Below, in pieces: positions 19,489 to 51,815 of a stretch of DNA of 64,000 nucleotides (positions are counted from its first letter, which is position 1; each line of letters starts with the position of its first letter). The translations under genes were made by a program, and so were the position numbers. The notes under the pieces are model-generated. The model was not told the origin of the DNA and ran no database searches. It was given only the letters and a program-made list of their open reading frames with translations. This stretch comes from a bacterium (GTDB lineage: Bacteria > Bacteroidota > Ignavibacteria > Kapaibacteriales > Kapaibacteriaceae): assembly GCA_036840065.1 (NCBI GenBank), contig DAITZZ010000003.1, positions 28,378-92,377 of the forward strand, read 5' to 3'.

Positions 19489-20319
19489 GTGGCGTATCTT
19501 TCCGGCAGCATGCAAGCAACTTCTCCCGAAGCGGCATCTGCCATGGCCGCGGCCGAGTTTCTCAGCAGTCACTACAACGTGAGCTTCGACGCACTCGTCG
19601 TCACGGGGTCGGGCTTCGTGCTCGGTACTGATCGCTCCGGCACAGGCTCTTCCCTGCCCTACTCCCGCGTTCCCGGAATGCCACGCGGAAGCGTTGCCGG
19701 CCATGAACATACATTTCGTGTTCTGCAGATCGGTGATCGCCATGCACTTCTCTGTTCGGGTCGGTTCCATCTGTACGAAGGCCTGAGAGCCGACGAATGC
19801 GGGATCTTCGTCGACATCGCCAATGCCCTGCATTGCCGGCGCATGCTGCTAACCAACGCCGTTGGCGGACTGAGCCCCTCCCTGCGCGTAGGAAGCATTG
19901 TGGCCGTACACGACATGCTGGACCTCAGCTCAACGATCATTCAATCTGCGCCGAGCAAAAAGAGATGGCCCTCCGGTACGGGGCTCTCTGGCGCGTGGCA
20001 TGATGACCTCATGCTCCGATGCCGGCAAAAAGGTCATCATCTTCATGAGGGCGTTCTTGCACAGATGCGTGGTCCGTCGTACGAAACACGCGCCGAAGTT
20101 CGCATGCTCCGTCGCATTGGGGCCGACGTGGTCGGAATGTCGACGGTGATCGAGGCACGTCGTGCGCTGGCATGCGGACTCGATACGATGGTTCTTTCGC
20201 TGGTCACCAACATGCTGACCGATGCTGTCCTTCCGATGCTGTCACACGATGATGTGATGCTGGCGGCCAGGGCCGCAAATTCCCAGATGGCCGAGGTCGT
20301 GCTGACTGCACTTGAATAG
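19489..20319 (+). CDS. Purine nucleoside phosphorylase (PNP/MTAP family, PunA-like)
   Basis: …ALVVTGSGFVLGT…HEHTFRVLQIGDRHALLCSGRFHLYEG…NAVGGLSPSLRVGSIVAVHDMLD…MRGPSYETRAEVRMLRRIGADVVGMSTVIEA, the PNP family phosphate- and nucleoside-binding motifs. The exact start is ambiguous (Met1, Met8 or Met19). Confidence 0.8.
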   Translation: MAYLSGSMQATSPEAASAMAAAEFLSSHYNVSFDALVVTGSGFVLGTDRSGTGSSLPYSRVPGMPRGSVAGHEHTFRVLQIGDRHALLCSGRFHLYEGLRADECGIFVDIANALHCRRMLLTNAVGGLSPSLRVGSIVAVHDMLDLSSTIIQSAPSKKRWPSGTGLSGAWHDDLMLRCRQKGHHLHEGVLAQMRGPSYETRAEVRMLRRIGADVVGMSTVIEARRALACGLDTMVLSLVTNMLTDAVLPMLSHDDVMLAARAANSQMAEVVLTALE

Positions 20320-20367
20320 TCGGATTGCAGACTCTACCTTTGCCACGCGTCCAGTGCCACGCTGACG

Positions 20368-20393
20368 CCCCCCCCTTTTTCGCGCGCGCGCGC
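20368..20393. repeat. Homopolymer C8-T5 followed by an alternating (CG)6.5 tract in the intergenic region upstream of the 20405 gene
   Basis: Seen directly: ...gacgcccccccctttttcgcgcgcgcgcgctcc... The coordinates are approximate. Confidence 0.6.
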
Positions 20394-20404
20394 TCCCCGA
20401 ACGT

Positions 20405-21223
20405 ATGCCTCTCTGTCCCACATACCTCATCCTGCCGGTCGCGCTTCCCCGTGCCCGGGTGCTTCGCACCCTTGTGCTGTTGACCCTCGCGAGCCTGACA
20501 TGGGGGTGTGGCACGGCCTCTCAGGATCTGACATCTCGCGTGCTTTCCGATACGATCTCCGTGCGAATCGTCCCCGGACCAACCCCGGCTGCCCTGCGTG
20601 TTGTGACCGAGCAGACGAGTGTTCCGCTGCTTTCCGGAAGCACCGAAGCAGAGCTGAGAATACGTGCGGCTGATTCGACCGTGATGCGCTACCCACTTGC
20701 CTTTGCGTCCATGGGTGCGCCCGGGAGGACAGAAACGCTCACCACCATGATCACCGCCGACATTCCGGCGGAGCTCGCGGCGAATGCGCTCGAGATGAGC
20801 ATCCGCGCTACAGCTGATTCCAAGGAGCGCATCTTCTCGGTTCGTGCGCAGGTCGACACCGCAGCGTTGGAGCTGACGCCATCGATGACGAAGCAGAGCG
20901 ACGGAACCTATCAGTTCTTGTTGAGAGCAACACGCCGGCGGATCATTCCCGGAGAATACTTTCCCTCGTCGGAACAACTGCGCATTGCTATCTACAACGG
21001 CAAGGGCGCCTCGGTTTGGTCGTCGAATGATGGCATGGCCTTTCTCACGGTTGTCATGCCCGTCGAGCCGGCTCTGCAGGGGGCTTCCCATCTCTACACG
21101 CTGGACTGGAACGGAATGTCGTCGCAGGGAGCTCGGCTGCCGTCCGGACGCTACCGCGTGCAGCTCACATTGCCCGTCAGGCCGGCCCCTTACTCATGTT
21201 TTTTGGATGTAGTGCTGCCCTGA
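20405..21223 (+). CDS. Hypothetical secreted protein with a C-terminal FlgD-Ig-like / T9SS-cargo-like beta-sandwich motif
   Basis: Signal-like N-terminus (LVLLTLASLTWGCGTAS) and a C-terminal ...YTLDWNGMSSQGARLPSGRYRVQLTLPV resembling the WDGxDxxGxxxxxGxY motif of FlgD-Ig-like domains. The antisense 295-aa ORF (20204..21091) is Arg/Gly/His-rich and judged spurious. Confidence 0.5.
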   Translation: MPLCPTYLILPVALPRARVLRTLVLLTLASLTWGCGTASQDLTSRVLSDTISVRIVPGPTPAALRVVTEQTSVPLLSGSTEAELRIRAADSTVMRYPLAFASMGAPGRTETLTTMITADIPAELAANALEMSIRATADSKERIFSVRAQVDTAALELTPSMTKQSDGTYQFLLRATRRRIIPGEYFPSSEQLRIAIYNGKGASVWSSNDGMAFLTVVMPVEPALQGASHLYTLDWNGMSSQGARLPSGRYRVQLTLPVRPAPYSCFLDVVLP

Positions 21224-21227
21224 CGCC

Positions 21228-22310
21228 ATGACCGTTTCAAGTTCCCATGATGAATGGATGCGCAGGGCGCTCCTACTAGCACAACTTGGTTCGGGCCGTG
21301 TGTCCCCTAACCCGATGGTGGGCTGCGTTATCGTCCACGATGACACGGTAATCGCCGAGGGCTGGCACTCGGCCTATGGCGAACTGCATGCCGAGACCGA
21401 CGCGCTGCGCCACCTCAACGGTATCGCCACCGGCGCAACGATGTATGTAACTCTCGAGCCGTGCACCCATTATGGGAAGCAACCCCCGTGCATCGACGCC
21501 ATCATACGAAGTGGTGTTGCACGCGTGGTCGTTGCCATGATTGACCCGAACCCACTGGTCTCGGGTCAAGGCATTGAACGTCTGCGCGAGGCGGGAATTG
21601 AGGTGATCACCGATGTGCTGCATGACGAGGCGGCCTACCTCAACCGCAGGTTTCTGCACTGGATGCGCAGTGGCTTGCCCCATGTTACGTTGAAGCTGGC
21701 AACGTCCCTTGACGCCAGGGCGCAGATGCCACCGGGCCAGCCGCGCTTTATCACATCCGCTGAGAGCCGGTTTCACGTCCACAAGCTCCGGGCCTGTGTC
21801 GATGCGGTGATGATCGGCATCGGAACGGCTCTGTACGACAACCCCGAACTGACCGTTCGGCTGTGTCCGGGACGTAACCCCGCACGCGTCGTGATCGACT
21901 CGATGTGCCGTTTGCCAACGAGCACGACGCTCGTAGCTACCGCCCGCGAAACACCTACCATCATCATCTGCTCCGACAAGTCAGATCGCGATGCTCGCGA
22001 AGAATTGCGCAACCAGGGGGTGGACGTTATCGTCGTGCCCACGCGGGAAGAACGAACGATCCTGACCGAAGACATCCTACGCGTGCTTGCAGAGAGGAAG
22101 ATCACTTCGGTGATGGCCGAAGGGGGCCCCTATCTGGCGGCACGGCTGCTGCGCGACGACGTTGTCGATGAGCTTCACTTCCACGTTGCCCCTGTGATGA
22201 TCGGAAGCGGGCCCAGCTGGGTCTTCGATACGGCGTTCCGCAGATGGATGCTGCGCGAACACCGCCATGTGGGACAGGATATCCACATGCAGTATGTTCG
22301 CAATCGATGA
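21228..22310 (+). CDS. ribD: Bifunctional riboflavin biosynthesis protein RibD (deaminase/reductase)
   Basis: Cytidine/dCMP deaminase zinc motif HAETDALRHLNGIATGATMYVTLEPCTHYGKQPPC, followed by a RibD C-terminal reductase domain. Confidence 0.9.
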   Translation: MTVSSSHDEWMRRALLLAQLGSGRVSPNPMVGCVIVHDDTVIAEGWHSAYGELHAETDALRHLNGIATGATMYVTLEPCTHYGKQPPCIDAIIRSGVARVVVAMIDPNPLVSGQGIERLREAGIEVITDVLHDEAAYLNRRFLHWMRSGLPHVTLKLATSLDARAQMPPGQPRFITSAESRFHVHKLRACVDAVMIGIGTALYDNPELTVRLCPGRNPARVVIDSMCRLPTSTTLVATARETPTIIICSDKSDRDAREELRNQGVDVIVVPTREERTILTEDILRVLAERKITSVMAEGGPYLAARLLRDDVVDELHFHVAPVMIGSGPSWVFDTAFRRWMLREHRHVGQDIHMQYVRNR

Positions 22311-23644
22311 CTACCCTCCGCGCGATTCTGATTCTCATGTTCGGCTTTTGCAGCCTGCCATGCATGCTGCCGGCGCAGACCACACCCAAGGTCATGTCCG
22401 AGCCCGTACAGAGCGCCCTCATCAAGCAGGACTGGAAAAGGGCCGAACGTGTTCTGCGAAGCGAGCTGCGCAGTAATCCCCGTGATCTGGATCGTCAGAC
22501 GCTTCTTGCCATCTGCCTGATGCGTCAGCAGAAGTTCGACGCGGCCCTGCGACAAGCCGAACTCATCACCCGTAGTCATCCACAGGCCTACGCAGCTCAC
22601 ATGATCGCAGCTGAATGTCACATGAGGCTTGGTCAGACAGATAAAGCTCTCGACATCTTTCGGTTGGCTCGCACGATCGCCCCCGACTCTGCAGAACCGG
22701 CAATGGCTCTGGGCATGATCCTTTCGAGCACCGGACGATTCGACGAGGCCATCACCTTTCTCGAGGAGTCACTCTTTCGCCGTCCCGGCAACATGCCCCT
22801 GACCATGCAGCTGGTTCGTTGCTATCTGCGCCTGGGTCGGGCATCGGAAGCTGCCGAGCTTGCCACGCGTGCCGCGGAGCTGGCTCCCGGTGATGCGAAC
22901 GCGCAGATGATGGCCGGCGAAGCGCTGATGGCATCACGCCGAACCGAACAGGCAATCGACTTTCTGCAACAGGCCATACGTCTTGGCGTCGGATCGTCAT
23001 CACCGCACATGCTGCTGACCATCGCGCTGCAAGACAATGGCCGAACCGACGAGGCGCTCGCCGTTGCCAGAGCATACGTCCAGGGCTCACAGGATGACCC
23101 TCAGGGATGGTACAATGTGGGACTGCTGCAGTTAGAGAAGATGCAGCTTGATTCGTCGTTGCGCTCTCTCAAAAAAGCCGTCGGTCTCAAGCCCAACTAC
23201 CCGGAAGCATACTACAACCTCGGACGCGTCTACGATGGACTGGGGTTTGGCGAGGACGCCATTCAGTCGTACCGCCGGGCTGCTGCGACGGGCGGAAACT
23301 TTGCCGCCGATGCCTATCTCGGAATGGCACTTATCTATCGCAAATCTGGAAACTTCACTGAAGCGATCCGTGCACACAGCCAGTCGGTATCGCTGCGGGA
23401 CACCTCCCAGGTGATGCGCGTGCAGCGCCTACAGACATGTTTCGAGGCTGATCGATGCGCCGACGCATCGGGATTTATCGACAAGGACGTGCGTGACTTC
23501 CCCACCAGCCCCGGAGTGCTGTTCGAAGCAGCGCGGTGCTTCGCTCGCACGGGACGGCGCAGCGACGCCGAACGCATTCTGACGTTTCTCGATAAAGAGT
23601 CGCCGGCGCTTGCCAGGGATCTCCGAATCTTCATGAGTCTGTGA
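22307..23644 (+). CDS. TPR repeat protein with signal peptide
   Basis: The start is Met22 (MTTLRAILILMFGFCSLPCMLPAQ), overlapping the ribD stop (ATGA). Multiple 34-aa TPR units follow (…AYAAHMIAAECHMRLGQTDKALDIFRLA…, …AYYNLGRVYDGLGFGEDAIQSYRRA…). Confidence 0.8.
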   Translation: MTTLRAILILMFGFCSLPCMLPAQTTPKVMSEPVQSALIKQDWKRAERVLRSELRSNPRDLDRQTLLAICLMRQQKFDAALRQAELITRSHPQAYAAHMIAAECHMRLGQTDKALDIFRLARTIAPDSAEPAMALGMILSSTGRFDEAITFLEESLFRRPGNMPLTMQLVRCYLRLGRASEAAELATRAAELAPGDANAQMMAGEALMASRRTEQAIDFLQQAIRLGVGSSSPHMLLTIALQDNGRTDEALAVARAYVQGSQDDPQGWYNVGLLQLEKMQLDSSLRSLKKAVGLKPNYPEAYYNLGRVYDGLGFGEDAIQSYRRAAATGGNFAADAYLGMALIYRKSGNFTEAIRAHSQSVSLRDTSQVMRVQRLQTCFEADRCADASGFIDKDVRDFPTSPGVLFEAARCFARTGRRSDAERILTFLDKESPALARDLRIFMSL

Positions 23645-26445
23645 TGTTGTTACGACTGCTCGGCCTGCCATCTGTCATGGCTCTGTGCGCGGCGCTTGCT
23701 GTGCTGTCAACTTCGATACTGCCGGCACAGAACAAGCCCGCATACCAGCACTCTGAAGCACACCGCCGTCTGCTCCATGGAGTCGACACTGCCCTTTCGG
23801 TCCTTGGCATGCGCATGGCCGATCTTTCCATGCCGGCCGACCTTCTGGACCGCGATCGGCACCGGAACGCCTTTCATGATCGCCTGTTTGACGACCCTCT
23901 GGCAAGCATGGCGTGGACTGATACGATCGCCGCAAAGCTTATCGCCCGCCAGGATAGCACATGGCGTCAGGTGCATGCCTCCCTGGTCACTGCACTTGGT
24001 TCATACGGTCGAAGGCCCCAACCGCTAGCAGACGAGAGTTCGCCGATTCGCTATCCGCCCGAGATGGAGCGTGCTGCACGACGTCTCAATACGACCTCGC
24101 GCAGACTCCTCGACCGCTACATCATCGGTACATTCAAGGCCGCTGCGGTCGCCATGAACGTGACGCAGCTTCAGCCAACAATGAACCCAGGGCTTGAACT
24201 ATCGAGCTTTAAGAAGCAGCTTGATTCGATGTGGACGCCATCGTCGGAGGACGACAAGCTCACCCTCTGGCAGGTGTACGACGGTGAACAACGCAGCCGA
24301 GAATCCACGGATGCAGTGAATCGATCTCTAAGCACAGTTCTGAATGAGTCGCTCAATGACATGGGCATGGCGGTCTACCTTGATATCCTTGAGCAGAACG
24401 CGCAGGCTCTTCGTAACCATGCTGGCCTTCTGGATTCGGTGAAGAGCGTTGTTTTTCAGACCAGCGTCGGCCGCATAGCCATCGGCGGCAGAGGCACGGA
24501 CCTCTACACTGGATCGTATGCGCTGATCATTGATGTTGGCGGCAATGATTCCTATGACCTGGCATCGTCGGACTCAGCGATGACGCAGATCATCATCGAC
24601 ATGGACGGTGATGATGTTTATCGAGGTCAGGACCACACACTCGGCTCGGGTCATTTTGGCATCGGCGTTCTGATAGACCATGCCGGCGATGATCAGTACA
24701 CCGCGCGAGATTTTGCTCTCGGATCTGGCGTGTATGGCTTTGGCATTCTCCACGATATGGCTGGCAACGATGTCTATCGCAGCCGTTCTAACTCCCAGGG
24801 GGCAGGCATTGTCGGCATGGGAATGCTGCTTGATGACTCAGGGCACGACCTCTACGTCTGCGCCTCGCAGTCTCAGGCCTTTGGTGCCACGCGTGGCGTT
24901 GGGATCCTGAGCGACAACGCCGGCAATGACCGATACATCGCCGTGAGCCCCTTTGCTGATGTTCTTCGATACGATGACCACCAGGTTTCGTTTGCGCAAG
25001 GGGCTGCCCTGGGTCATCGACCAACGATGTCCGGAGGTATCGGTCTGCTTGTTGATGCCTCCGGCAACGACCTCTACTCCTGCGACATCTATGGTCAGGG
25101 CACTGGATACTGGTTTGGACTTGGAGCCCTCATCGACCTCGGGGGAGACGACCGATATGATGCGTATCAGTATGCTCAGGGCTCCGGCGTTCATTTTGCT
25201 GTTGGCCTTCTGACGGATGCAAGCGGTGAAGATGTCTATCGTTCTCACGGCGTGTCGCAAGGCTGCGGACACGACATTGCCACGGGACTGCTTCGAGATC
25301 ACGCCGGTAACGACACGTACATGTGTGAGAGTCTCTCACTCGGGGCCGGCAATGCGAACGCCGTCTCAATCCTCTATGATGAATCGGGCCAGGACAGCTA
25401 CAGCGCCTTGAATGAAAGCAACACCATCGGTTACTCTGACATGCGTCGCGGCTACGGGATGATCGGGCTGTTCATTGATGGCGGAGGCCGCGACCGATAT
25501 GGCGAGACACTTCGCAATGACACGGTAGTGGCAAAGTCGACCTACGGCCTGTTTCTCGATGCCGAACTTGATGGCACGCAGCGCAGTTCGTCACAGACCC
25601 CGCCGTCGGCTTCGTCCTACACGCTGACTTCCAGCATCGACAGTTTGTTTATCCAGGCTTCGGCCTCTCATCTCCGGTTTCAGAACGCCGTGTCCCCGGC
25701 ACGGAAGGAACTGGGCAAGCGCGGACAACCGGCACTCGCATTCCTCGAAACACAGCTTTCAACTCAGATGCCACGTGAGCGCCTGACGTTGGAGATCGTG
25801 CTTCCCGATCTGTATGCAAGTGACCGTGATTCGACCATAGCTCTACTCAGGCGCGGCCTGCTGTCGGACGATAACGCCTCGGTCACCATCGCAGCGACAG
25901 TCGCGGGCAAGGTCAAGTGCCGAGAACTGGTTTCGACGCTTACGGACATGGTTTCGAGTGCTTCATGGCGTCGACGTCGGCTTGCCGTCGCCACACTTGG
26001 CGAGATCGGAGACTCGGCCAGTATTCCTGCCTTGAGAGCGGCCTGCAAGGACGTGCATCCATACGTGCGTCAGCGCGCGGCAAGCGCATACACGCGATAC
26101 GTCAGCAGCGACGATCCGTTGCTGGCAACGTTGCTCGCTGACACGCTGCAGGTTGTTCGCATGGCCGCTGTCGAGGGCCTTGCGCGCGGTGCAAAGCGCC
26201 CCCTCTCATCGATCTTACCGCTTATTGATGGACACGCAGATCAGCGGTCGTTGCCATCTATGATGCGTCTGCTGGCTGCATCGGATACAACAGCATCTGA
26301 TATCGACACCTTCACGCAATGGTGGTCACGGCAGGATGACTCTCGGAAGGGGCTCGTACGGCGCATCAGCGCGGCAGTGCCTGGCCCACTGATCCGTGTC
26401 ATGGATGGCACGACGAGTTCGTCGCCGACGGAACCGAGGAAATGA
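23641..26445 (+). CDS. Large secreted protein (934 aa): signal peptide, ~13 tandem ~26-aa Asp-rich repeats (G-x-G-[IL]-L-x-D-x-[AS]-G-[ND]-D-x-Y), C-terminal HEAT/PBS-lyase-like repeats
   Basis: N-terminal signal MMLLRLLGLPSVMALCAALAVLSTSILPAQ. Repeats include GSYALIIDVGGNDSYDL / GIGVLIDHAGDDQYTARDFALGSG / GFGILHDMAGNDVYRSRSNSQGAG / GMGMLLDDSGHDLYVCASQSQAFG / GVGILSDNAGNDRYIAV / GIGLLVDASGNDLYSCDIYGQGTG / LGALIDLGGDDRYDAYQYAQGSG / VGLLTDASGEDVYRSHGVSQGCG / TGLLRDHAGNDTYMCESLSLGAG / GLFIDGGGRDRYGE. The C-terminal HEAT-like helices (…RRRLAVATLGEIGDSASIPALRAACKDVHPYVRQRAASAY…VRMAAVEGLARGA). The start overlaps the TPR gene stop by 4 nt. Confidence 0.75.
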   Translation: MMLLRLLGLPSVMALCAALAVLSTSILPAQNKPAYQHSEAHRRLLHGVDTALSVLGMRMADLSMPADLLDRDRHRNAFHDRLFDDPLASMAWTDTIAAKLIARQDSTWRQVHASLVTALGSYGRRPQPLADESSPIRYPPEMERAARRLNTTSRRLLDRYIIGTFKAAAVAMNVTQLQPTMNPGLELSSFKKQLDSMWTPSSEDDKLTLWQVYDGEQRSRESTDAVNRSLSTVLNESLNDMGMAVYLDILEQNAQALRNHAGLLDSVKSVVFQTSVGRIAIGGRGTDLYTGSYALIIDVGGNDSYDLASSDSAMTQIIIDMDGDDVYRGQDHTLGSGHFGIGVLIDHAGDDQYTARDFALGSGVYGFGILHDMAGNDVYRSRSNSQGAGIVGMGMLLDDSGHDLYVCASQSQAFGATRGVGILSDNAGNDRYIAVSPFADVLRYDDHQVSFAQGAALGHRPTMSGGIGLLVDASGNDLYSCDIYGQGTGYWFGLGALIDLGGDDRYDAYQYAQGSGVHFAVGLLTDASGEDVYRSHGVSQGCGHDIATGLLRDHAGNDTYMCESLSLGAGNANAVSILYDESGQDSYSALNESNTIGYSDMRRGYGMIGLFIDGGGRDRYGETLRNDTVVAKSTYGLFLDAELDGTQRSSSQTPPSASSYTLTSSIDSLFIQASASHLRFQNAVSPARKELGKRGQPALAFLETQLSTQMPRERLTLEIVLPDLYASDRDSTIALLRRGLLSDDNASVTIAATVAGKVKCRELVSTLTDMVSSASWRRRRLAVATLGEIGDSASIPALRAACKDVHPYVRQRAASAYTRYVSSDDPLLATLLADTLQVVRMAAVEGLARGAKRPLSSILPLIDGHADQRSLPSMMRLLAASDTTASDIDTFTQWWSRQDDSRKGLVRRISAAVPGPLIRVMDGTTSSSPTEPRK

Positions 26446-28043
26446 TCGGCCATCATCTCACGCTTGAGCACATCGCACGGGAACTGAGTACTCTTCTCTG
26501 CGGTGCAACATTGGTGCGCGCATGGTCACAGCAGAAGGGTGTGGCCACGCTCGTTTTTGCCATGGGGTCAGATGAGATTCCGGTGGTCATCGACGTGCAT
26601 GCGAAGGATGCCTCGATCACGGTGCGTCAGAGTGCGCAGCGCGCGCTGCGCAATTGTATCGACATTTTTCCGGGGTTACTTGGCCAGAGTCTCGGCGCTG
26701 TGGTGAAACTCGAGCACGACCGGGTTATCAGCTTCATCTTTTCCCATGATGTCCTCCATGTAGAGCTTTTCAGCGCTGGCCGCGGCAACATCCTCTGCTG
26801 CCATGAGGCCATGGTGACCGATGCGCTGCACCGGAGGACGGAGCGCATCGGGCATGCCTTTTCGACGTTGCCTCGGGTCTCTGCCGAGCCTCTCGTTCGC
26901 GCTGAACTGACGCTGCTGCAGGATCTGTCAACGTGTGCGCATCGACTTGGCAAGCACTACGCGGAAGAAGTCTGCATCCGTGCCGGACTCAGCCCGTCGC
27001 TGCTGGTCGAGCAGCTCTCGGCAGATCAGCGAGAGCTCGTCACGGCATGCGTAGTGTCGCTCCTGGAGCAGTGCCGGACGTGCACGCAGTATCTAATCCT
27101 GCGGCGCGGCGACGACGTGCTGCTGTCGCTCATCCCGCTGCATGGCTGGCAGGTCGGCGAGAGTCATGACTCGGTGCTCGAGGCTGTGCGCATTGTCTCG
27201 TTCCGACGCCGCTCGGATCGTACATTTCGTGATGAACAGCAGCGTCAGCTGCGGTCGATCGACGCTCTGATCGGCAAGATCAGCCGCACCCTGCAGGCCG
27301 TTCTCGGCGATGAGGATGCTACGGGGCGCTCTGGTCGCTATCGCTCATGGGCTGACACACTGATGGCTCAGCAGGATATTCAGCGCACCGGGATGAATCA
27401 CCTCGAACTTGTTAACGTGGTCAGCGGCGAATCGGAGACGATTCCACTGCGGCGGGAATCGACGATTCTCGAAAATGCCACGGCGCTCTATGCCAAAGCT
27501 CGTGATGCCGAGCAGGCTGCTCGACGTCGAGAGCAGCGCATTCCGGAATTGCGACGTCGACTCGACGACCTCTACGGTGAGCGCAATCGTATCGCAGCAG
27601 CCCGGTCGCTTTCGGATCTCCCTAAACACCCGCCAGCCATGGATAACCAGCAGAACACTCGTACTCCCGTTTTCAGGGAGTTTCGACTTGATGACAAACA
27701 CACGCTCTATGTCGGCCGCAGTGCGGCAAACAACGACGAGCTAACGATGAAGTTTGCGCGGCAGCAGGACTGGTGGATGCACGTGCGGGGCGCGAGTGGT
27801 TCACATGCTGTGCTGCGGGGAGTGAGCGGTCCGAAGATCCCGAAGCAGATCCTAGAAGCAGCGGCGGCCATCACCGCCTATTACTCGCAGGCGCGCAATG
27901 CCTCCTACGTTCCTGTCGTTTACACGCAGCGCAAGTACGTCCGCAAGCCCAAGGGGGCGAACGTTGGAGCAGTAGTGATCGACCGCGAGCAGACCGTCAT
28001 GGTGCGTCCGTCTCTGCCCGAGGGCGCGATCAGCGAAGAATGA
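26442..28043 (+). CDS. NFACT-family protein (RqcH / FbpA-like ribosome quality control protein homolog)
   Basis: NFACT-N-like N-terminus (LEHIARELSTLLCGATLVRAWSQQKG…VELFSAGRGNILC), a central coiled coil (ARDAEQAARRREQRIPELRRRLDDLYGERNRI), and a C-terminal NFACT-R/DUF814 domain (LDDKHTLYVGRSAANNDELTMKFARQQDWWMHVRGASGSHAVLRG…AAAITAYYSQARNASYVPVVYTQRKYVRKPKGANVGAVVI). The start overlaps the preceding stop by 4 nt. Confidence 0.75.
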   Translation: MIGHHLTLEHIARELSTLLCGATLVRAWSQQKGVATLVFAMGSDEIPVVIDVHAKDASITVRQSAQRALRNCIDIFPGLLGQSLGAVVKLEHDRVISFIFSHDVLHVELFSAGRGNILCCHEAMVTDALHRRTERIGHAFSTLPRVSAEPLVRAELTLLQDLSTCAHRLGKHYAEEVCIRAGLSPSLLVEQLSADQRELVTACVVSLLEQCRTCTQYLILRRGDDVLLSLIPLHGWQVGESHDSVLEAVRIVSFRRRSDRTFRDEQQRQLRSIDALIGKISRTLQAVLGDEDATGRSGRYRSWADTLMAQQDIQRTGMNHLELVNVVSGESETIPLRRESTILENATALYAKARDAEQAARRREQRIPELRRRLDDLYGERNRIAAARSLSDLPKHPPAMDNQQNTRTPVFREFRLDDKHTLYVGRSAANNDELTMKFARQQDWWMHVRGASGSHAVLRGVSGPKIPKQILEAAAAITAYYSQARNASYVPVVYTQRKYVRKPKGANVGAVVIDREQTVMVRPSLPEGAISEE

Positions 28044-31000
28044 TCAGCAACGTGCGGCTCTGGCCCACGCGCAGGATGTAGGTCCCCTGCTCAAGGGCCG
28101 ACACATCGACTCCCTGCTCGGTCTGCGACGCAGGCAGCTGCCGCTGGTATACTACGCGTCCGTCCATAGCGGTGATCGAGATATCATGCAGGCCTCTGCC
28201 CGATCGGATGTGGATCATATCAGACGCCGGGTTGGGACCAACGTCGATGTTGTGGACAGACGAGCCCTCCGCGACGCTGACCGGCAGACCGGAGTATGTC
28301 ATCATGATCTGCGTGGGTGTAAGCAGCCCCCTATCGACATTGGCCGACACACCGGACTGGTTCAAGCGAAGAAAACCATTGTCGTTGATGCGTGCTGCGG
28401 ACCATTCCTCCGAGGTGCTCCACGACGAGCGAGTCAGGATGCCGTACGTCCTGTCAGTCGAATCATCGGCAAGAGCGCGTCGATCGCAGGAAAGACGCAT
28501 CCGTGCCAGCTCAGCGCCTCGCTGCGGACCAAAGACGTTCAGCACACGCCAGCTATGTTCAAGAGGATTCTGCTGTCCTGTCGCTCTGGCACCGGCTACC
28601 CGGTCAAAGGTGGTCATCACCAGTTCCACGTCGTCTGTAAGGGGCTTCTGGAGCTCGACGGTGTCCTCGGCAAATCCCGCCTGCCGAGCCCCCTTGGCAA
28701 GCCGCACGAGCTCGCTCGAACCGGACGCCACAAGTGCGCCCGAGGCGATGGGCCCGGAGCCCGATTGATAGCTCCCGTCGCGGCCGGCAACTTTGTCGTA
28801 GATCACTCCTCGTGAGCCCTCATTGAACTGGTAGTAGGCCATCAGTCCCTCGTCACCGCGACGTCGGGTAAGGTGCATGGATGTCCTGACGTCGAATTCG
28901 GTTAGACATCGGCTGTAGAGCGACACCTCGTCGATGGAGCCCGAGAAATTGCGGTCGCTCCAGTAGTGATAGGTTCCGAGCGTGAACACCAGTGATGACA
29001 GATCCAGTTTCGGCAGAGACGTTGCATCCTTGCTACCGATGCCATTGACGTACACCGTCGCACCGGTGCTGTCAATGGTCAACGCCACATGTGACCATTC
29101 ATCAGGGCGGAGGGTAAGACCCGAGCCCCACCACCATCGACCTCCTGACCAGAGGTATCCGAGCTCATTACGATCATTGACAAACTGCAGTCCTATTTCC
29201 TGCGATACACCGGGATCAGCATCCGTGCAGAGGATCGCCGAAAAATTGGGCTGCATGCCAACGGGCTTGACCCAGGCCGTGAAGCTGAACTCGCGCGTGG
29301 TGCCGGAGTAGCGGCCCAGCGTGATATGATCCTGCGCACCCGACAGGTCTGCCGCATTGCCTGCTTCGGCTGCGAAGACCTCGCACTCACTCGGCAGCAC
29401 CGTGATGGCATCCTTCATCAATGCTGTGTCGGCTCCGTATTCGTTCTCAACGATGAGACGCACGTCATACGTGCCGGGTGCTGAGTAGAGGACGTTCACA
29501 ACCGGGAGGGCAGACTCCGACGGCTTACCCGATGGGAACTGCCAGCGACGTCGGAAGGCCGCAGTTTCAATGGCCGCTGACCGGCAGCCGAACCGCACGG
29601 GATGGCGCGCACATCGAACGGTATCGGTGTCCATCGAGATCAATGCACGGGGCTTGGTCGACATGGGGAGATCGATCTGCCACAGTCCGCGGTTGGTAGC
29701 GATGCGAAGTCGGGATCCCGGGTCATCAATGTGCAGGAAGTTCACATCGGAAATGGGAAGCCCCCTACCGAAGAGGGCCCACCTGGTTTGCGGCGTGTAC
29801 CGATAGACGCCATAACTCGTCCCGGCGTAGAGTTCACCCGATGTGCCGCGGCGGCTCACCAGCGTGAAGATCGCGAACGCTGGAAGCCCGTCAGAAAGCG
29901 ATGCCCAGGTCTGTCCTGCATCGGAGGTTTCGGCAACCTTCACCTTGTTTTGATTGCCTCCAAAGGCCACGTACAGTCGAGAGGAGACGTCGTCATCGAA
30001 GGCAACATCTACCATTCCCTGCCCACGAGAAACACTCTCCTTCGGCGTGATATTCGTCCAGCTCACTCCGGCATCAAGACTCTGCCAGAGCTCAGCGTCG
30101 GCAATAGCAACAATGTGATTGCCATTCTCGGGGTGCACACGCACGCGTGATACGTAGCGTGCAAACGTCTTCAGCGTCGTCCACGAGCTGGCATTATCGT
30201 CGCTGAGAACCACGCGTTGTGTGGCGTGATCAGCGGCAATGATGCGGAAGTAGCGCACCGGGTCGAACTCGATGTTGTTCATCGTCAGATAGCCAAGATC
30301 GATTCCCAGCTCCGAGGAGGAAGGGGGCAGAAGCTTTGATCGCGTGCGTCGCACGCGGACGTTGCCCCAGGGCTTGGCATAGATCCATTCACTGGCAACC
30401 GGGTTGACGTTTGCACCCATGGCGTCTGCCCCGGCCCACGGATACCAGCCTCCCATGGGGAACTCAGCCGTGTAGACGGTCGTGTCACGAAAGAACGTCG
30501 GCAGGTGATAGGCCCCCATGGCCATGATGTGTCCGTCGTGCGACTGATCAAAGCCCCAGACCTCCGCGGCACTGATGCCGAAACTGCGCTCGGAGATCGA
30601 CCCGCCGCGGTTACTGCTGAGTGTTATCCCGCCGTCATGCGTAAGCCAGACCGAATCGCCGACAACCGATGCGGATTGAATGTCGTAGTGCATCGGAGGA
30701 AATGTTCGCCAGTTGCGACCACCGTCGCTGGAGCGATACGGGAAAATGCCGGCAGCAACCATGAACTGCGGATCCCGCGATGAGATCGCAAACCCCATAT
30801 CCCAGGTGACCTGTCCCAGCCCCTTGCCGTCGATATCGTAGTCGAAGATATTCGGGTTCGTCCCACGGTTCGTTGCTTCCGGACCGTCAACGTTTCCGCA
30901 GCAGCGGTGCTCAAAGGTCGACCCTTCATCGGTGGAAACGTACAATCCATAGACGCCGCCGAATTCACCGGCAGAGCCGGCGATCATGACGCTTACCATC

Positions 31001-32022
31001 CCGGGCGATGCCGGCGTGACGGCCAGCAATGCCCGCGCCATCGACATGCCTGGCCGAGCAGCCGGATAGCCCTGACCAGTGGGATTGAACTTCACGCCCG
31101 AGCTTGTTGACCTCACGAAGCTGATGTGCGATTCGATCTGCACGAGGCCGTAGGCAACGTCACTGCGCTCGGGATGCCACAGCAAGTCCCACCATGTGCC
31201 GATCATGTTGCTGGCCGACTTCCATGTCGATCCTGCGTCGGTCGACAGGAACAAACGTCCGATCGTTGCAATCACTACACGCCGGGCATTGTTCGGGTCG
31301 ACGGCGCAGAGATCCACTGCCACCGCCTGCGTAAGGGCAAGGTCCCCCTCGAGAGAAACGCGACGAAACGTCAGCCCCGTGTCGGTAGACACGTACAGGC
31401 CGGCGCTGGTGGCGGCATACACCGTATCGTTCGCAACCGTGAACCGTTGAACACTCTGGATCGGCTCGTCCTGAGCGATCGCCGACCAGGTGCGCCCGGC
31501 ATCCGTGCTGCGCCATATGCCGGCAGAAATCGTTCCAGCAAGAATCAGCTCCGGCTGCCCGGGCCAGACAAGATGTGTTCGCACCACACCGATGCCCTGC
31601 GAACCGGTCTGCAGCACGGCGTCCGTGTCCCAGCCGAATGGACCGAGGGCCTGCCACTGTGGCTCAGAGCTTTGCACATTCTCCGAGGCACTCTTGCGCC
31701 GAAGGGACTCGCGCAGGATCTCGCCGATTGGCGGCCTCAGGGGGCCGATGTTGCCGCGCGCGTCAGCGTGAGGGAGACGTTCGGAGATCCAGCGCCGAGC
31801 CGCGCGAACCTGTCTGCTCGCCCCCTGACCGTGCGTGGAAGAGTCCCGCTGCAGAAGCGTCAGGACATCGAAGACATTGGGATGGTCGGCCTCGACAAGC
31901 CGATACCACTGCGAATGACGGTGTTGAGGATTATCCGGCAGACGCTCATCGTTGCGACTCGCTCCGGCCGCAGCCGACGTCAGCAACGGCAGAAGAATGA
32001 CGAGAAACGCATAAACCGGCAT
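28030..32022 (-). CDS. Giant secreted protein (1330 aa): BNR/Asp-box beta-propeller repeats, LamG/ConA-like domain, T9SS C-terminal sorting domain
   Basis: Signal peptide MPVYAFLVILLPLLTSAAAGA. At least 8 Asp-box motifs (STDAGRTWSA, STDTGLTF, STDAGSTWKS, STDEGSTFEH, SSDGGRNWRT, SDDNASSWTT, SLDAGVSWTN, TSDAGQTWAS). A LamG-like segment (…GLQFVNDRNELGYLWSGGRWWWGSGLTLRPDEWSHVALTID…). The C-terminal T9SS tail GPNPASDMIHIRSGRGLHDISITAMDGRVVYQRQL…GTYILRVGQSRTLLIILR. Confidence 0.85.
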   Translation of the reverse strand: MPVYAFLVILLPLLTSAAAGASRNDERLPDNPQHRHSQWYRLVEADHPNVFDVLTLLQRDSSTHGQGASRQVRAARRWISERLPHADARGNIGPLRPPIGEILRESLRRKSASENVQSSEPQWQALGPFGWDTDAVLQTGSQGIGVVRTHLVWPGQPELILAGTISAGIWRSTDAGRTWSAIAQDEPIQSVQRFTVANDTVYAATSAGLYVSTDTGLTFRRVSLEGDLALTQAVAVDLCAVDPNNARRVVIATIGRLFLSTDAGSTWKSASNMIGTWWDLLWHPERSDVAYGLVQIESHISFVRSTSSGVKFNPTGQGYPAARPGMSMARALLAVTPASPGMVSVMIAGSAGEFGGVYGLYVSTDEGSTFEHRCCGNVDGPEATNRGTNPNIFDYDIDGKGLGQVTWDMGFAISSRDPQFMVAAGIFPYRSSDGGRNWRTFPPMHYDIQSASVVGDSVWLTHDGGITLSSNRGGSISERSFGISAAEVWGFDQSHDGHIMAMGAYHLPTFFRDTTVYTAEFPMGGWYPWAGADAMGANVNPVASEWIYAKPWGNVRVRRTRSKLLPPSSSELGIDLGYLTMNNIEFDPVRYFRIIAADHATQRVVLSDDNASSWTTLKTFARYVSRVRVHPENGNHIVAIADAELWQSLDAGVSWTNITPKESVSRGQGMVDVAFDDDVSSRLYVAFGGNQNKVKVAETSDAGQTWASLSDGLPAFAIFTLVSRRGTSGELYAGTSYGVYRYTPQTRWALFGRGLPISDVNFLHIDDPGSRLRIATNRGLWQIDLPMSTKPRALISMDTDTVRCARHPVRFGCRSAAIETAAFRRRWQFPSGKPSESALPVVNVLYSAPGTYDVRLIVENEYGADTALMKDAITVLPSECEVFAAEAGNAADLSGAQDHITLGRYSGTTREFSFTAWVKPVGMQPNFSAILCTDADPGVSQEIGLQFVNDRNELGYLWSGGRWWWGSGLTLRPDEWSHVALTIDSTGATVYVNGIGSKDATSLPKLDLSSLVFTLGTYHYWSDRNFSGSIDEVSLYSRCLTEFDVRTSMHLTRRRGDEGLMAYYQFNEGSRGVIYDKVAGRDGSYQSGSGPIASGALVASGSSELVRLAKGARQAGFAEDTVELQKPLTDDVELVMTTFDRVAGARATGQQNPLEHSWRVLNVFGPQRGAELARMRLSCDRRALADDSTDRTYGILTRSSWSTSEEWSAARINDNGFLRLNQSGVSANVDRGLLTPTQIMMTYSGLPVSVAEGSSVHNIDVGPNPASDMIHIRSGRGLHDISITAMDGRVVYQRQLPASQTEQGVDVSALEQGTYILRVGQSRTLLIILR

Positions 32023-44935: not shown

Positions 44936-45166
44936 TTACTTGGCTTTTTTTTTTGCCGCAGGCTTTGCAGCCTTCTTAGCTGGCTTTGCCGCTGGCTTCG
45001 CAGCCTTCTTGGCTGGCTTAGCTGCTGGCTTTGCAGCCTTCTTGGCTGGCTTTGCCGCTGGCTTCGCAGCCTTCTTGGCTGGCTTTGCAGCCTTCTTGGC
45101 TGGCTTTGCAGCCTTCTTAGCTGGCTTGGCCGCTGGTTTCTTGGCGGCTTTCTTTGCTGCTGCCAT
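44936..45166 (-). CDS. Histone H1-like lysine/alanine/proline-repeat protein (76 aa)
   Basis: MAAAKKAAKKPAAKPAKKAAKPAKKAAKPAKKAAKPAAKPAKKAAKPAAKPAKKAAKPAAKPAKKAAKPAAKKKAK. The other two frames on this strand encode low-complexity R/L/Q or G/F/A strings. This frame gives a typical bacterial H1/Hc1-like basic tail. Confidence 0.6.
   Translation of the reverse strand: MAAAKKAAKKPAAKPAKKAAKPAKKAAKPAKKAAKPAAKPAKKAAKPAAKPAKKAAKPAAKPAKKAAKPAAKKKAK
44955..45150. repeat. Tandem DNA repeats (~21-nt units, e.g. ggctttgcagccttcttggct) encoding the AKKAAKP repeats
   Basis: Directly visible periodicity in the nucleotide sequence of the H1-like gene. A T10 homopolymer (~44945-44954, A10 on the coding strand) lies immediately 3' of the repeats. 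Confidence 0.7.
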
Positions 45167-48200: not shown

Positions 48201-48498
48201 CGTGCGTGTCCCAGCCGGCCTGGCGGCGTACGAAGAAGCCCTGCATGTTCTTGTAGCGGCAGACGGAGTCTTTGATGGTCCGCGCAAGAACATGGTGAAT
48301 GCCGGGCTTGCCGTTTACCGTTGGCGGTCCTTCATAAAAAGTGAAGGACGGCGCTGATTGTCGCAGTTCCTGAGTACGAGCGAACACATTATTCGCTTCC
48401 CAGTATTCAAGGATGGACTCTTCTTGCGTTGGGTAGGAGAAATCGTCAGGAAGAGGTTGAAACATGTGCTGCAGGAATCCCCAGATGATCGATCTCAC
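45226..48498 (-). CDS. ileS: Isoleucyl-tRNA synthetase (type 2, eukaryote/Bacteroidota-like, ~1090 aa)
   Basis: HIGH region (…PTVNGKPGIHHVLARTIKD…), KMSKS (…KMSKSKGN…), the editing CP1 domain, and a long C-terminal extension. An alternative start is at Met12 (48465). Confidence 0.95.
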   Translation of the reverse strand: MRSIIWGFLQHMFQPLPDDFSYPTQEESILEYWEANNVFARTQELRQSAPSFTFYEGPPTVNGKPGIHHVLARTIKDSVCRYKNMQGFFVRRQAGWDTHGLPVELSAEKELGITDKAQIEVMGVDVFNAACKDIVYRNITMESGWRTLTRRMGHWLDLDSAYITCTNNYIESVWWALKQFFDKGLIYRGYKVVPQSPTLGTPLSSHELSQNYKEVRDPNVYLKLAITSSPVESLRGVKVLVWTTTPWTLFANVALAVGAGITYVRVRNTRQVGESTISEELLLAESRLAILEGDVEILSSHKGSEIVGSAYEQIFSDVALDADQHPHVLTILPGDFVSTDDGSGIVHLAPAFGQDDFEMSKLFHLPVPQPVSPNGHFSSEIRDFSGRAVKSFTYSDHTEEGADRDIVKALKIAGKIYKASFDYLHSYPHCWRTDNPVIYYARDSWFIRSPRYRDRLVELNRSVNWHPEEIGEGRFGNWLEEVKEWSISRDRYWGSPLPIWVSEDGTSMFAVGSIEELHAGLYEREDGTRVPVAQCGVAVDLHRPFVDRVVFERDGVTYRRTREVVDVWFDSGSMPFAQFHYPFENKELFEASFPADFIAEGIDQTRGWFYTLHNISTALFDAPAYRHVVVNDLVLDKRGQKMSKSKGNTVDPFEVISRFGSDAIRWFLMTSSPVHKPKLWNEDDIAKTVIADFFRSLTNTYEFFALYANVDGYSAAESLIPIAERPEIDRWIISRLHTLIKSYTAAMDEYDLTRACRLLQEFMIEEVSNWYVRRNRRRFWKGEYDADKRAAYQTLHEVLLRVTEMTAPVAPFLAESLFLRLRLHQEQFTVHCIILQRCDETVIDSDLEHRMQQAQRIVSLARSLREKAKIKTRQPLKRILLPVDSPQMRRHIQSVEEIITEEINVKSIEYVSDDTNIVRRSARPNFKVIGRKYGGDTQSVANAIKSMTHDDVRRLEQSSVLTIDVGERNVQIDFEDVEIISEDIEGWLVASDNGVTVALDTELDEELIREGLAREFVSRLQKLRKDSGFDVTDRITVLYETDDDTSIALESMRSYIAMETLAEALERGGQFEGTGLEINGRHVNVRVQRV

Positions 48499-50024
48499 AA
48501 AGTTACGAACGTGATCTTGAAGGTCGTGCCGGCACCCTCTGCTGATACCACATCGATCGTGGCATGGTGTGCGTCAAGAATCCACTTGACGATCGACAAA
48601 CCGAGGCCGGTACCCTGGATGTCCTTCGAGCGCGCTTTGTCGACTCGGTAAAAGCGATCATAGATATGCGTCAGGTCCTCGGCAGCAATTCCGATTCCGG
48701 TGTCGCTGACCAGCAGACGCGCTTTGCCGTCGATGGCAAGCAGCTCCACACGCACAAAGCCCCCTTGCGGAGTGTACTTGATGGCATTCTCGATGATGTT
48801 CAGCACCGCCTGATGCAGTCGGGTTTTGTCGCCCTCGATCATCACGTTCGAGGCGATGTCCGTCGTAAATCCGACACCTTTACTATCGGCCATCAGCAGC
48901 ATGTCATCACAGATGTCCCCTACCAGAACACTCAATGAAACCGGTGCGCGCTCGATCGTAACCTGCCCCGACTCGGCGCGACTGATCTCAAGAAGTCCCT
49001 GCACGACGTTTGTCAGTCGCTCAACCTCCTCAAGGCAGCTGGCCAGCGTTGCCTGATACTCCTCCACGCTCATTGGCCGACGCAAGGCAACACCGAGCTC
49101 GCCCATAAGGATGGCAAGGGGCGTCTTGAGCTCATGCGATGCATCGGACGTGAACTGCCGAACCTGCGCAAATGACTGCTCAAGCCGGGCGATCATCTCG
49201 TTGAGCGTGTCGATCAGCCGCGCGATCTCGTCGTTGTTCGGCGATCGCGGCAACCGAAGCTGAAGATTGCTGGCCGTGATCGACCGCGCTGATCGTGTGA
49301 TGTCATCGACAGACTTCAAAGAGCCCCGTGCAATGAACCATCCCAGAATACCCGAGATCACCAGAGCCATCGGCATGCCATAGAGCATAAGCGAGAACAG
49401 GCGACGCAAGGTCTCATCGACCTCAGACAGTGGGTACGCCGCCGTAACCGAGGCTACGTCTGCCGTGATCATCACGATACGATAGCGCTCACCGCGCAGC
49501 CAGTAGTGCGAAAAGATCGGCGCGGGCTTTGCCGACGATGCCTCGCGGGCGAACATCCCGTAGGTGGGCAGGCTATCCGTACCAAGGTTGTCTGACTTCC
49601 ACGCCACCGCTCCGTCATCGGTAGCCAGTTGCAGAGCAGTGCTCGATGAGTTCAACAGCATGTGCTCATAAACTGCCGACCAGACCGGATCCTCTGGAGC
49701 GACGGTCCCGCTGCCGAGTATCGGCCCGACGAAGTTGCGCATGTTCGGACGATCAAGGATATCGACGCGCAGAGGATCGGTCTTGGAGAGTCGGCCACGA
49801 GACCGCAGCGAGGCAAGGGGCTTGCGGGCCTGCTGCTGCTCCTTGCGGATAATGTCCAGCAGTGAGCTTCCTGCCCGCTCCAGCGAGGCATCCAGATTCC
49901 GAAGAAGCTCGTTGCTCACCGTCACGTACGCGATACCGGCAAAGCCGGCCAGCGTCACGGCAACGATGGTCCCATACAGAAGGGCGAGTTTCGCACGAAG
50001 GGTCAGATTCACGGTCCCGAACAT
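48495..50024 (-). CDS. Sensor histidine kinase (TM-periplasmic-TM, HAMP, HisKA, HATPase_c)
   Basis: H-box …SHELKTPLAILMGEL…, N/G boxes …NIIENAIKYTPQGGFVRV…DTGIGI…GTGLGLSIV… The start is Met24 (MFGTVNLTLRAKL…) of the 48495..50093 ORF. No response regulator is adjacent. Confidence 0.85.
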   Translation of the reverse strand: MFGTVNLTLRAKLALLYGTIVAVTLAGFAGIAYVTVSNELLRNLDASLERAGSSLLDIIRKEQQQARKPLASLRSRGRLSKTDPLRVDILDRPNMRNFVGPILGSGTVAPEDPVWSAVYEHMLLNSSSTALQLATDDGAVAWKSDNLGTDSLPTYGMFAREASSAKPAPIFSHYWLRGERYRIVMITADVASVTAAYPLSEVDETLRRLFSLMLYGMPMALVISGILGWFIARGSLKSVDDITRSARSITASNLQLRLPRSPNNDEIARLIDTLNEMIARLEQSFAQVRQFTSDASHELKTPLAILMGELGVALRRPMSVEEYQATLASCLEEVERLTNVVQGLLEISRAESGQVTIERAPVSLSVLVGDICDDMLLMADSKGVGFTTDIASNVMIEGDKTRLHQAVLNIIENAIKYTPQGGFVRVELLAIDGKARLLVSDTGIGIAAEDLTHIYDRFYRVDKARSKDIQGTGLGLSIVKWILDAHHATIDVVSAEGAGTTFKITFVTL

Positions 50025-50895: not shown

Positions 50896-51815
50896 TGGTC
50901 TCGTATATCCTTCGCAAGATCCTCTACACGCTGCTGGTACTGGTCGGCGTGGTCGTGGTCACGTTCTTTATCCGTCCTCCGGGCGATCCGGCGCGCGTTC
51001 TGCTGGGGCAGCGGGCAGATTCGGCCTCCGTGGCAGCTCTGCGCGAGCAGCTTGGACTCGACAAGCCCCTTCCCTATCAGATCACGACCTACATGACCAG
51101 TCTGGCAGGGGGCGACCTGGGCCGCTCGATCGCCACCAACCGTCCCGTTGCCGAGACCATCATTGAGCGGCTCCCGGCAACGGCTCTGCTGGCGGTAACA
51201 TCGATCACCATCGCTACCATTCTCGGAATTCTGCTCGGTGTGATCGCAGCATGGCGACCCAACACATGGATCGACACGCTGACGATGTCGACGTCGCTGC
51301 TGGGGATTTCTCTGCCGGCATTTGTGGTGGGACTGCTGCTGGTGCTTGTCTTCGGTGTGGGTCTTGAATGGTTCCCCATCAGCGGATATGTCGACCGTGG
51401 AGCAGAGCATCTCGTGCTCCCGATGATTACACTGGCAATCCGCCCGCTTTCGATCATCGCTCGCGTCACACGATCAAGCATGCTCGATGTGCTGGGTCAG
51501 GATTACGTGCGCACCGCCAGAGCCAAGGGGTTATCGGATGCGGCGGTGTTCGTCAAGCACGCATTGCGCAATGCTCTGAACCCCGTGGTCACCACCGTCA
51601 GTGCATGGTTTGCGGGCCTGCTGGCAGGAACCTATTTCGTCGAGTTTATCTTCAACTGGCCCGGCGTCGGGCTGGCAGCATTCAACGCCATCGAGAAACT
51701 TGATTACCCCATGATCCAAGGAACCGTCCTGTTCACGGCGATCATCTTTGTGACGGTCAACACGTTGGCCGACATTCTTTATGGGTTCATCGATCCGAAG
51801 GTGCGGCTCTCATGA
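50895..51815 (+). CDS. ABC transporter permease (Dpp/Opp-type, DppB-like)
   Basis: MVSYILRKILYTLLVLVGVVVVTFFI…, a 6-TM BPD_transp_1 domain with the EAA-like region …ARAKGLSDAAVFVKHALRNAL…. Confidence 0.85.
   Translation: MVSYILRKILYTLLVLVGVVVVTFFIRPPGDPARVLLGQRADSASVAALREQLGLDKPLPYQITTYMTSLAGGDLGRSIATNRPVAETIIERLPATALLAVTSITIATILGILLGVIAAWRPNTWIDTLTMSTSLLGISLPAFVVGLLLVLVFGVGLEWFPISGYVDRGAEHLVLPMITLAIRPLSIIARVTRSSMLDVLGQDYVRTARAKGLSDAAVFVKHALRNALNPVVTTVSAWFAGLLAGTYFVEFIFNWPGVGLAAFNAIEKLDYPMIQGTVLFTAIIFVTVNTLADILYGFIDPKVRLS

Follow-up and report, generated by a model that had tools for sequence, protein, structure and literature searches.

A tight gene string from C2 and ribD to rqcH in an uncultured Kapaibacteria-type bacterium is probably a compact, lineage-specific operon

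Five genes and their junctions

We analysed a string of five genes on the forward strand of a 64-kb stretch of DNA (64,000 nucleotides (nt); contig DAITZZ010000003.1, positions 28,378 to 92,377), which at its full length is referred to below as the window. The string consists of a gene that we call C2, ribD, a gene for a tetratricopeptide repeat (TPR) protein, a gene for a large protein with solenoid and HEAT repeats that we call P3, and a gene for an RqcH-like NFACT protein. Taken together, the evidence favours a compact operon of unrelated genes over a functional module. The genes of the string and its immediate flanks are listed here, with coordinates of the window and lengths in amino acids (aa).

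19489-20319 (+): PNP-family gene, upstream of C2
20335-20342 (+): candidate promoter of the operon, 63 nt before the C2 start; its sequence, TACCTTTG, fits the Bacteroidota-type -7 motif TAnnTTTG exactly
20405-21223 (+): C2, 272 aa, lipoprotein-like and predicted to be exported, with an Ig-like C-terminal part (from the open reading frame (ORF) and its N-terminus)
21228-22310 (+): ribD, bifunctional riboflavin deaminase/reductase, predicted cytoplasmic (TIGR00326, Pfam)
22307-23644 (+): TPR protein of 445 aa whose N-terminus, MTTLRAILILMFGFCSLPCMLPAQ, resembles a signal peptide (matches to many TPR families)
23644-26445 (+): P3, 933 aa, predicted to be exported, with three domains (ORF, AlphaFold2 model)
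26442-28043 (+): rqcH-like NFACT gene, 533 aa, without a signal peptide (NFACT_N, NFACT-R_1)
28030-32022 (-): convergent gene of 1330 aa with a type IX secretion system (T9SS) C-terminal sorting domain, marking the end of the string

An earlier note on this DNA had described four consecutive ORFs for RibD, a TPR protein, a repeat/HEAT protein and an RqcH-type NFACT protein, and both the coordinates and the profile matches confirm them. It had also placed ribD at the head of the string. However, C2 ends 4 nt upstream of the ribD ATG, and the PNP-family gene precedes C2; ribD is gene 2 of 5, and the tight string begins with C2. Homologues of C2 lie directly 5ʹ of ribD in more than 40 loci of related genomes, with a 4-nt overlap possible in about half of them. 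The five genes are on the same strand, their stop and start codons overlap, and apart from the 4-nt gap between C2 and ribD there is no intergenic space, as expected of an operon.

Contrary to the earlier note, not every junction is an ATGA. Inspection of the sequence confirmed ATGA at the ribD/TPR junction (22307-22310) and at the P3/rqcH junction (26442-26445), but the TPR/P3 junction reads GTGATG (23641-23646), with a TGA stop at 23642-23644. P3 could start either at GTG 23641, giving a 4-nt overlap and a protein of 934 aa, or at ATG 23644, giving a 1-nt TGATG overlap and 933 aa. A public protein that is 100% identical to P3 is annotated at 933 aa, which corresponds to the start at ATG 23644, and among the 29 relatives with a TPR-to-P3 junction a 1-nt overlap (TGATG or TAATG) is possible in ~10 and a 4-nt overlap in 8. 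Because of the length of the public protein and the junctions of the relatives, the 1-nt overlap seems more likely than the 4-nt GTG form. For the TPR gene, the start at 22307 is preferred to an upstream ATG at 22244, since the alignments in relatives begin at residue 1.

The overlap of the P3 stop codon with the rqcH start codon (NTGAT, Met-Ile) is kept in ~30 of 42 related loci, down to ~40% P3 identity. The geometry of the ribD-to-TPR and TPR-to-P3 junctions is more variable in relatives, with +4, +1 or small gaps. At the far end of the string, the 3ʹ ends of rqcH and the convergent 1330-aa T9SS gene share 14 nt (28030-28043). The same convergent arrangement is found in loci L001 and L002, with an overlap of 11 nt, and in 20 of the 42 loci where rqcH is next to P3. 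The overlap of the two 3ʹ ends leaves no space for a terminator between these genes.

Gene neighbourhoods in related genomes

P3 loci were taken, with 10-kb flanks, for the best 80 of the relatives from at least 547 genomes; six window proteins were searched in them by tblastn, and all ORFs were clustered. A neighbour-joining tree of the 73 full-length P3 sequences orders the contexts, although the tree is rough. The full order C2-ribD-TPR-P3-rqcH is present in 23 sequences, including that of the window, and these belong to the window's clade only (P3 identity 43-74%). This clade is also syntenic for YicC, PNP, the 1330-aa T9SS gene, OmpA and ArgDC. Hence, conservation of the trio of TPR, P3 and NFACT genes within the clade is little informative, because the flanks are syntenic too. 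Among the 73 loci, the TPR gene itself is found only in the window's clade.

Other clades retain other parts of the string. Thirteen loci from neighbouring clades have C2-ribD-P3-rqcH without the TPR gene, some of them within quite other surroundings, such as PRPP synthase and L25 on the upstream side. C2-ribD-P3 is followed by dnaE, without rqcH, at three loci (L058, L062 and L070), and P3-rqcH is found without ribD at another three. P3 has neither ribD nor rqcH in the fetched flanks at ~29 of the 73 loci, 8 of which are cut near P3 on one or both sides; the neighbours in these ~29 loci include PorV, a GBBH-like protein, DnaB, RecA, DnaE, a PreP peptidase, DJ-1, and small or very large T9SS proteins. 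For the full set, rqcH is not the downstream neighbour of P3 at 34 of 73 loci. The ribD-P3 and P3-rqcH links are broken in separate clades, and each junction is broken in some lineage.

A different TPR gene lies 5ʹ of P3, after a gene for a DegP-like protease, at two loci. In both L057 (5176-12487) and L066, which are deep-branching, the order is the DegP-like protease gene, a small T9SS-tail gene, a 335-aa gene, the different TPR gene and then P3. This is a second adjacency of TPR and P3 genes, possibly an independent one.

Distant homologues of the rqcH gene (28-33% identity) were found in four unrelated contexts: between genes for MlaE and a DMT protein; next to YicC and beside ATP synthase genes; with urocanase and T9SS cargo genes; and with genes for an aminotransferase and RtcB. 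The earlier note had proposed that the TPR, P3 and NFACT genes form a conserved module, and had named neighbourhood conservation as a check. When this check was run on the 73 P3 loci, the trio was found only in the syntenic clade of the window; beyond that immediate clade the genes are scattered, and there the module idea fails. Adjacency of the three genes across distant, rearranged lineages was not observed. The pattern of contexts fits the decay of an ancestral operon better than it fits an obligate module.

Overlaps, promoters and terminators in the window

How unusual are the overlaps? Using longest-ORF calling, 4-nt overlaps occur at 7 of ~30 same-strand junctions in the window, and ATGA was verified at 51812, 52855 and 61389. 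The ATGA at 52855-52858 joins a gene for an OppC-type permease (51812-52858) to holA (52855-53931), which encodes the delta subunit of DNA polymerase III. These are functionally unrelated genes joined by a tight overlap. Hence, a 4-nt overlap is not a marker of complexes in this window. At a frequency of 15-23% per junction, ~0.1-0.3 runs of three 4-nt overlaps are expected per window. The run of overlaps in the string is tight packing that is mildly unusual at most, and it is no sign of a complex.

The earlier note had taken such overlaps as a hallmark of both translational coupling and stoichiometric complexes. The first part stands as plausible, whereas the second meets a counterexample in oppC/holA. 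Because the NTGAT overlap is so widely conserved (~30 of 42 loci), the P3-rqcH pair is plausibly the best candidate for true translational coupling. More generally, ATGA overlaps are frequent in compact genomes and also join unrelated genes; alone, they are no indication of complexes.

At 48498, a histidine kinase gene and ileS seem to overlap by a GTGA; this was considered as another overlap of unrelated genes and was dropped. An exact TAACTTTG promoter-type motif (48495-48505, - strand) coincides with this site; hence, the start of ileS probably lies further downstream, with its own promoter within the end of the kinase gene.

Exact matches to TAnnTTTG number 11 in the window, compared to ~8 expected by chance, and at least six of them are just upstream of gene starts. 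No exact match is present on the + strand within 20343-28043. We regard TACCTTTG as weak evidence for a promoter of the string. Allowing one mismatch made the motif uninformative (221 matches, with 243 expected), and a scan for the sigma-70 consensus, which is unsuited to Bacteroidota, gave no enrichment. Terminator-like sites were not in excess, and were rarer than in shuffled sequence. With no gaps, no internal exact -7 motif, one such motif upstream of C2, and few terminator-like sites, the string is very probably a single transcription unit; this picture of promoter and terminators rests on motifs. There is no FMN riboswitch at threshold anywhere in the 64-kb window and there are no other rib genes in it, in agreement with the earlier note.

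An RqcH-type NFACT protein

The protein encoded by the last gene of the string matches NFACT_N (PF05833) at 83.7 bits (cut-off 31), with residues 6-393 on positions 3-430 of the 456-position profile, and NFACT-R_1 (PF05670, DUF814) at 52.3 bits, above the Pfam cut-off. It matches chains of Bacillus subtilis RqcH at 1.4e-23 over the half that contains the coiled coil and NFACT-R. B. subtilis RqcH has a DR motif (D97/R98) for tRNA binding and a DWH motif (D482/W484/H486) for interaction with the 50S subunit (bioRxiv 10.1101/2020.09.03.281279). Both motifs are present in the window protein. Among 13 aligned homologues, the most distant at 26% identity, R94, D443, W445 and H447 do not vary, and D93 is at least 90% conserved. 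The position of the EIM motif (E121/I122/M123) reads E108-L109-F110 in a manual alignment, with the hydrophobic pair conserved and the Glu variable. NF041120 (RqcH_arch) scores 75.6 bits against a cut-off of 400, but this is an archaeal model and has little weight for a bacterial protein. Some Kapaibacteria-type RqcH homologues (P0188 and P0202, ~487-490 aa) are shorter by ~60 residues in the stretch from the NFACT-N core to the coiled coil (alignment columns ~210-280), where the helix-hairpin-helix region would be expected.

The NFACT_N and NFACT-R matches, together with the DR and DWH positions, bear out the RqcH architecture recognized in the earlier note. Its suggestion of a role outside ribosome-associated quality control (RQC) finds no such backing, since the canonical motifs are retained. 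We infer that the protein is an ordinary RqcH-type factor with RqcH activity, and nothing in its sequence points away from the standard RQC role. Bacterial NFACT genes have been described as having no conserved neighbourhoods (Burroughs and Aravind, PMC4075521). A 2024 survey apparently lists rqcH in 404 of 1,956 FCB-group genomes, a reading in which the order of the table columns is inferred (PMC11633108); if that figure is read correctly, the presence of rqcH in this phylum was already known.

RibD, C2 and the P3 family

The ribD product matches TIGR00326 at 321.5 bits (cut-off 156.35), with residues 11-351 on positions 1-339 of the 343-position profile. Both of its domains were found, dCMP_cyt_deam_1 (PF00383) and RibD_C (PF01872), as in a full-length RibD. 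The N-terminus of C2 is lipoprotein-like (...LLTLASLTWGCGT), and its match to FlgD_ig falls below the cut-off.

P3 begins with a hydrophobic, signal-like N-terminus. An AlphaFold2 model of the protein (predicted local distance difference test (pLDDT) score 84, predicted template-modelling (TM) score (pTM) 0.84) has three domains after the signal-like helix:

23737-24438 (+): N-terminal all-helical domain, aa 33-266 (AlphaFold2, pLDDT mostly >85)
24448-25560 (+): beta-solenoid, aa 270-640 (AlphaFold2 and sequence repeats)
25636-26406 (+): C-terminal HEAT-repeat domain, aa 666-922 (HEAT_2, AlphaFold2)

The predicted solenoid has 12 repeats of D-x-x-G-x-D-x-Y at a spacing of ~26-27 residues. It is rich in Cys, His and Asp, and the motifs VSQGCGHD, YAQG.G.H and ESLSLG.GNAN are invariant across 47 sequences; Cys542, His544 and Asp545 are among the invariant residues. 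The C-terminal domain matches HEAT_2 (PF13646) at 46 bits (cut-off 27.7; aa 737-816), and the helical repeats of residues 666-922 are modelled at pLDDT >90; both the profile match above threshold and the alpha-solenoid fold identify HEAT repeats. Matches to alphaRep, PBS-HEAT and PP2A-A proteins were obtained for this domain with hidden Markov models and with Foldseek. In contrast, the first 660 residues of P3 have no Pfam match at E up to 10, a PDB profile search with the N-terminal and solenoid parts gave no match, and Foldseek gave no significant match for the solenoid.

A word-indexed protein search gave more than 1,100 homologues of P3, the best of which are named as metagenome-assembled genomes of Kapabacteria, Ignavibacteria or Chlorobi. 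When GTDB was scanned with a single genome for each species, relatives of P3 were encoded in at least 547 species-level genomes. A profile of the solenoid matches 4,148 representatives of clusters at 50% identity, 2,188 of them at E up to 1e-30. The solenoid family includes forms of ~650 aa without HEAT repeats and forms with N-terminal HEAT repeats. In three of the latter (P0301, P0329 and P0340) the HEAT repeats come first and the beta-solenoid forms the C-terminal part; fusions of the two modules exist in either order. P3 is a large, uncharacterised family of proteins with predicted export, and its delineation may be a useful by-product of our analysis.

Split and fused forms of P3

The P3 homologue of Zixibacteria is 650-669 aa long and consists of the helical and solenoid parts. 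A separate HEAT gene of 279-308 aa follows it in all three loci, which have different flanks:

L088 8001-10832: Zixibacteria P3/HEAT gene pair
L089 8001-10945: Zixibacteria P3/HEAT gene pair
L090 8001-10966: Zixibacteria P3/HEAT gene pair

The gene pair shares homology with the N-terminal and solenoid domains of P3 (profile E <1e-100), and it consists of two genes where the window has one fused P3. P3 can thus be read as a fused pair, because all three Zixibacteria loci encode the HEAT partner directly after the solenoid gene. Two of the three loci have tatC directly 5ʹ, in L088 with an overlap of 4 nt. There is no NFACT gene within 8 kb and no adjacent ribD or TPR gene at any of the three. 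As far as these gene orders indicate, HEAT is the sole neighbour that the solenoid module has in both phyla, and in the window the two are fused.

A second type of fusion involves ribD. An in-frame ORF of 1265 aa joins RibD to P3 in two protein clusters with less than 90% identity, from different sources (P0076 and P0077):

L003 8001-11798: RibD-P3 fusion ORF (same contig as L030)

The hydrophobic segment of P3 is kept in the fusion as an internal span, KKLLPLIIAFFIAAESLLAV. This is consistent with a topology in which RibD would be inside and P3 outside. The loss of one stop codon between the adjacent genes is enough to explain the fusion. At L049 and L067, longest-ORF calling produced spurious ribD-P3 fusions; the real in-frame ones are limited to L003/L030 and P0076/P0077.

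Other features of the window

Two further features were noted away from the string:

44936-45166 (-): ORF of 76 aa that is almost entirely AKKAAKP repeats, encoded by tandem DNA repeats of 21 and 33 nt
58031-58114 (-): single tRNA gene, the sole Rfam match at the gathering threshold in the window

The AKKAAKP ORF looks like a histone H1-like, Lys/Ala-rich nucleoid protein, and it accounts for the strong negative AT skew of 44936-45166.

Discussion

What does this string of genes represent? We propose, with a probability of roughly 0.75, that it is a vertically inherited, lineage-specific, compact operon of unrelated housekeeping genes in an uncultured Kapaibacteria-type (Bacteroidota) bacterium, and not a new machine that links the envelope to RQC. 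C2-ribD-TPR-P3-rqcH would be transcribed as one mRNA from a promoter upstream of C2. The products would then act in separate compartments, with riboflavin synthesis and RQC in the cytoplasm, and C2, TPR and P3 presumably exported. The 4-nt and 1-nt overlaps would reflect genome compaction rather than a physical complex. They would probably allow termination-reinitiation, such that the downstream genes, and rqcH in particular, could be translated without a strong initiation signal of their own. The NFACT protein would be expected to bind tRNA and the 50S subunit, and to add alanine tails, an activity that in the RqcH/NEMF family acts on obstructed 50S subunits together with an S4-domain cofactor (RqcP/YlmH).

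Several observations weigh against this explanation. The C2-ribD-P3-rqcH block persists with different flanks in several clades (at least two sets of flanks), P3 and rqcH keep their exact NTGAT overlap over deep divergence, and ribD and P3 are fused in frame in one lineage. Selection, or at least inertia, holds these genes together, and a functional reason is possible.

One such reason would be that TPR, P3 and NFACT proteins form a functional module, either as a stoichiometric complex or because the RqcH-like protein has an envelope function, such as quality control of stalled secretory nascent chains or moonlighting of the kind described for “fibronectin-binding” NFACT proteins. Stop and start codons do overlap at the junctions, the P3/rqcH overlap is conserved in ~30 of 42 loci, and the P3-rqcH pair survives among three different types of flanks. 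The signal-peptide-like N-termini of TPR and P3, with none on the NFACT protein, have also been counted in favour of a module, but they place the proteins, by prediction, on opposite sides of the inner membrane. Moreover, the trio is confined to one generally syntenic clade, with the TPR gene absent from sister clades; rqcH is not downstream of P3 in 34 of 73 loci, nor in Zixibacteria; distant rqcH genes have unrelated neighbours; the canonical tRNA- and 50S-binding motifs of RqcH are retained; and ATGA overlaps in the window also join unrelated genes. We consider a module of this kind very unlikely. Alternatively, the exported proteins alone could be partners, with TPR, and perhaps C2, associating with P3 as a periplasmic or outer-membrane-associated scaffold, and with ribD and rqcH as passengers. 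C2, TPR and P3 all have export-type N-termini, TPR and HEAT domains mediate protein-protein binding, and in the window's clade the TPR gene entered the string precisely in front of P3. A different TPR gene (22% identity) is directly 5ʹ of P3 in L057 and L066, and small T9SS-tail or Ig-like genes lie beside P3 in several other contexts. Nonetheless, most P3 loci are without a TPR gene, the TPR protein of L057 may be unrelated beyond its repeats, and ribD separates C2 from P3. A partnership of the exported proteins is therefore an unlikely, though not far-fetched, explanation.

It is also conceivable that RibD and P3 are functionally linked, for example if P3 were an extracytoplasmic flavin-dependent or flavin-handling protein, with rqcH as a passenger. 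C2-ribD-P3 is kept where dnaE replaces rqcH (L058, L062 and L070), and the 1265-aa in-frame fusion, which occurs in two clusters, is topologically consistent. However, P3 has no ribD beside it in Zixibacteria or at about half of the loci, a single lost stop codon could produce the fusion, within which P3 may have kept a start of its own, and profile searches detected no flavin-binding motif or domain in P3. Such a link is highly improbable. A further possibility is that expression of RqcH in Kapaibacteria is deliberately tied, by the conserved termination-reinitiation overlap, to synthesis of the exported solenoid/HEAT protein, with RQC dedicated to, or regulated by, the production of P3 and its TPR partner. 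We find this very doubtful; if true, it would be an undescribed, lineage-specific link between envelope biogenesis and RQC. The conserved P3/rqcH overlap may itself be of use, as a clean natural test case for termination-reinitiation in a phylum with little use of Shine-Dalgarno sequences.

Comparison with known systems

The solenoid of P3 recalls Ca2+-dependent beta-solenoids, namely region IV of MpAFP (PDB 3P4G) and RTX beta-rolls, which are likewise regular and have a G-(N/D)-D ladder in each coil. These proteins were the top Foldseek matches, although non-significant (E 1.7-9, TM score 0.15-0.43), and their coils are 19 and 9 aa long compared to ~26-27 aa in P3; this is a resemblance only, and we do not claim homology. 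The C-terminal 250 aa of P3 are similar in both sequence and fold to PBS-lyase-type HEAT and alphaRep proteins such as NblB, YibA and MTH187. In contrast to these cytoplasmic proteins, the HEAT repeats of P3 follow a signal peptide, a helical domain and a solenoid, and are probably extracytoplasmic.

The window's RibD shares with bacterial RibD proteins (TIGR00326) the full-length combination of deaminase and reductase. Its gene differs from the usual bacterial ribD, for which we take the nrdR-ribD-ribE-nusB region of Escherichia coli to be the comparison, in that it sits among genes for exported proteins and is fused to P3 in one lineage.

Relative to B. subtilis RqcH (YloA; NEMF/Rqc2 family; PDB 7AQC, 7AS8 and 7OPE), the window's NFACT protein has an N-terminal half that is too diverged for pairwise detection, and its gene is the last in an operon with ribD and genes for exported proteins. 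Nonetheless, the order of domains, from NFACT-N through the middle region and coiled coil to NFACT-R, is common to both proteins, and they are similar in length (570 aa for B. subtilis RqcH, 533 aa for the window's protein).

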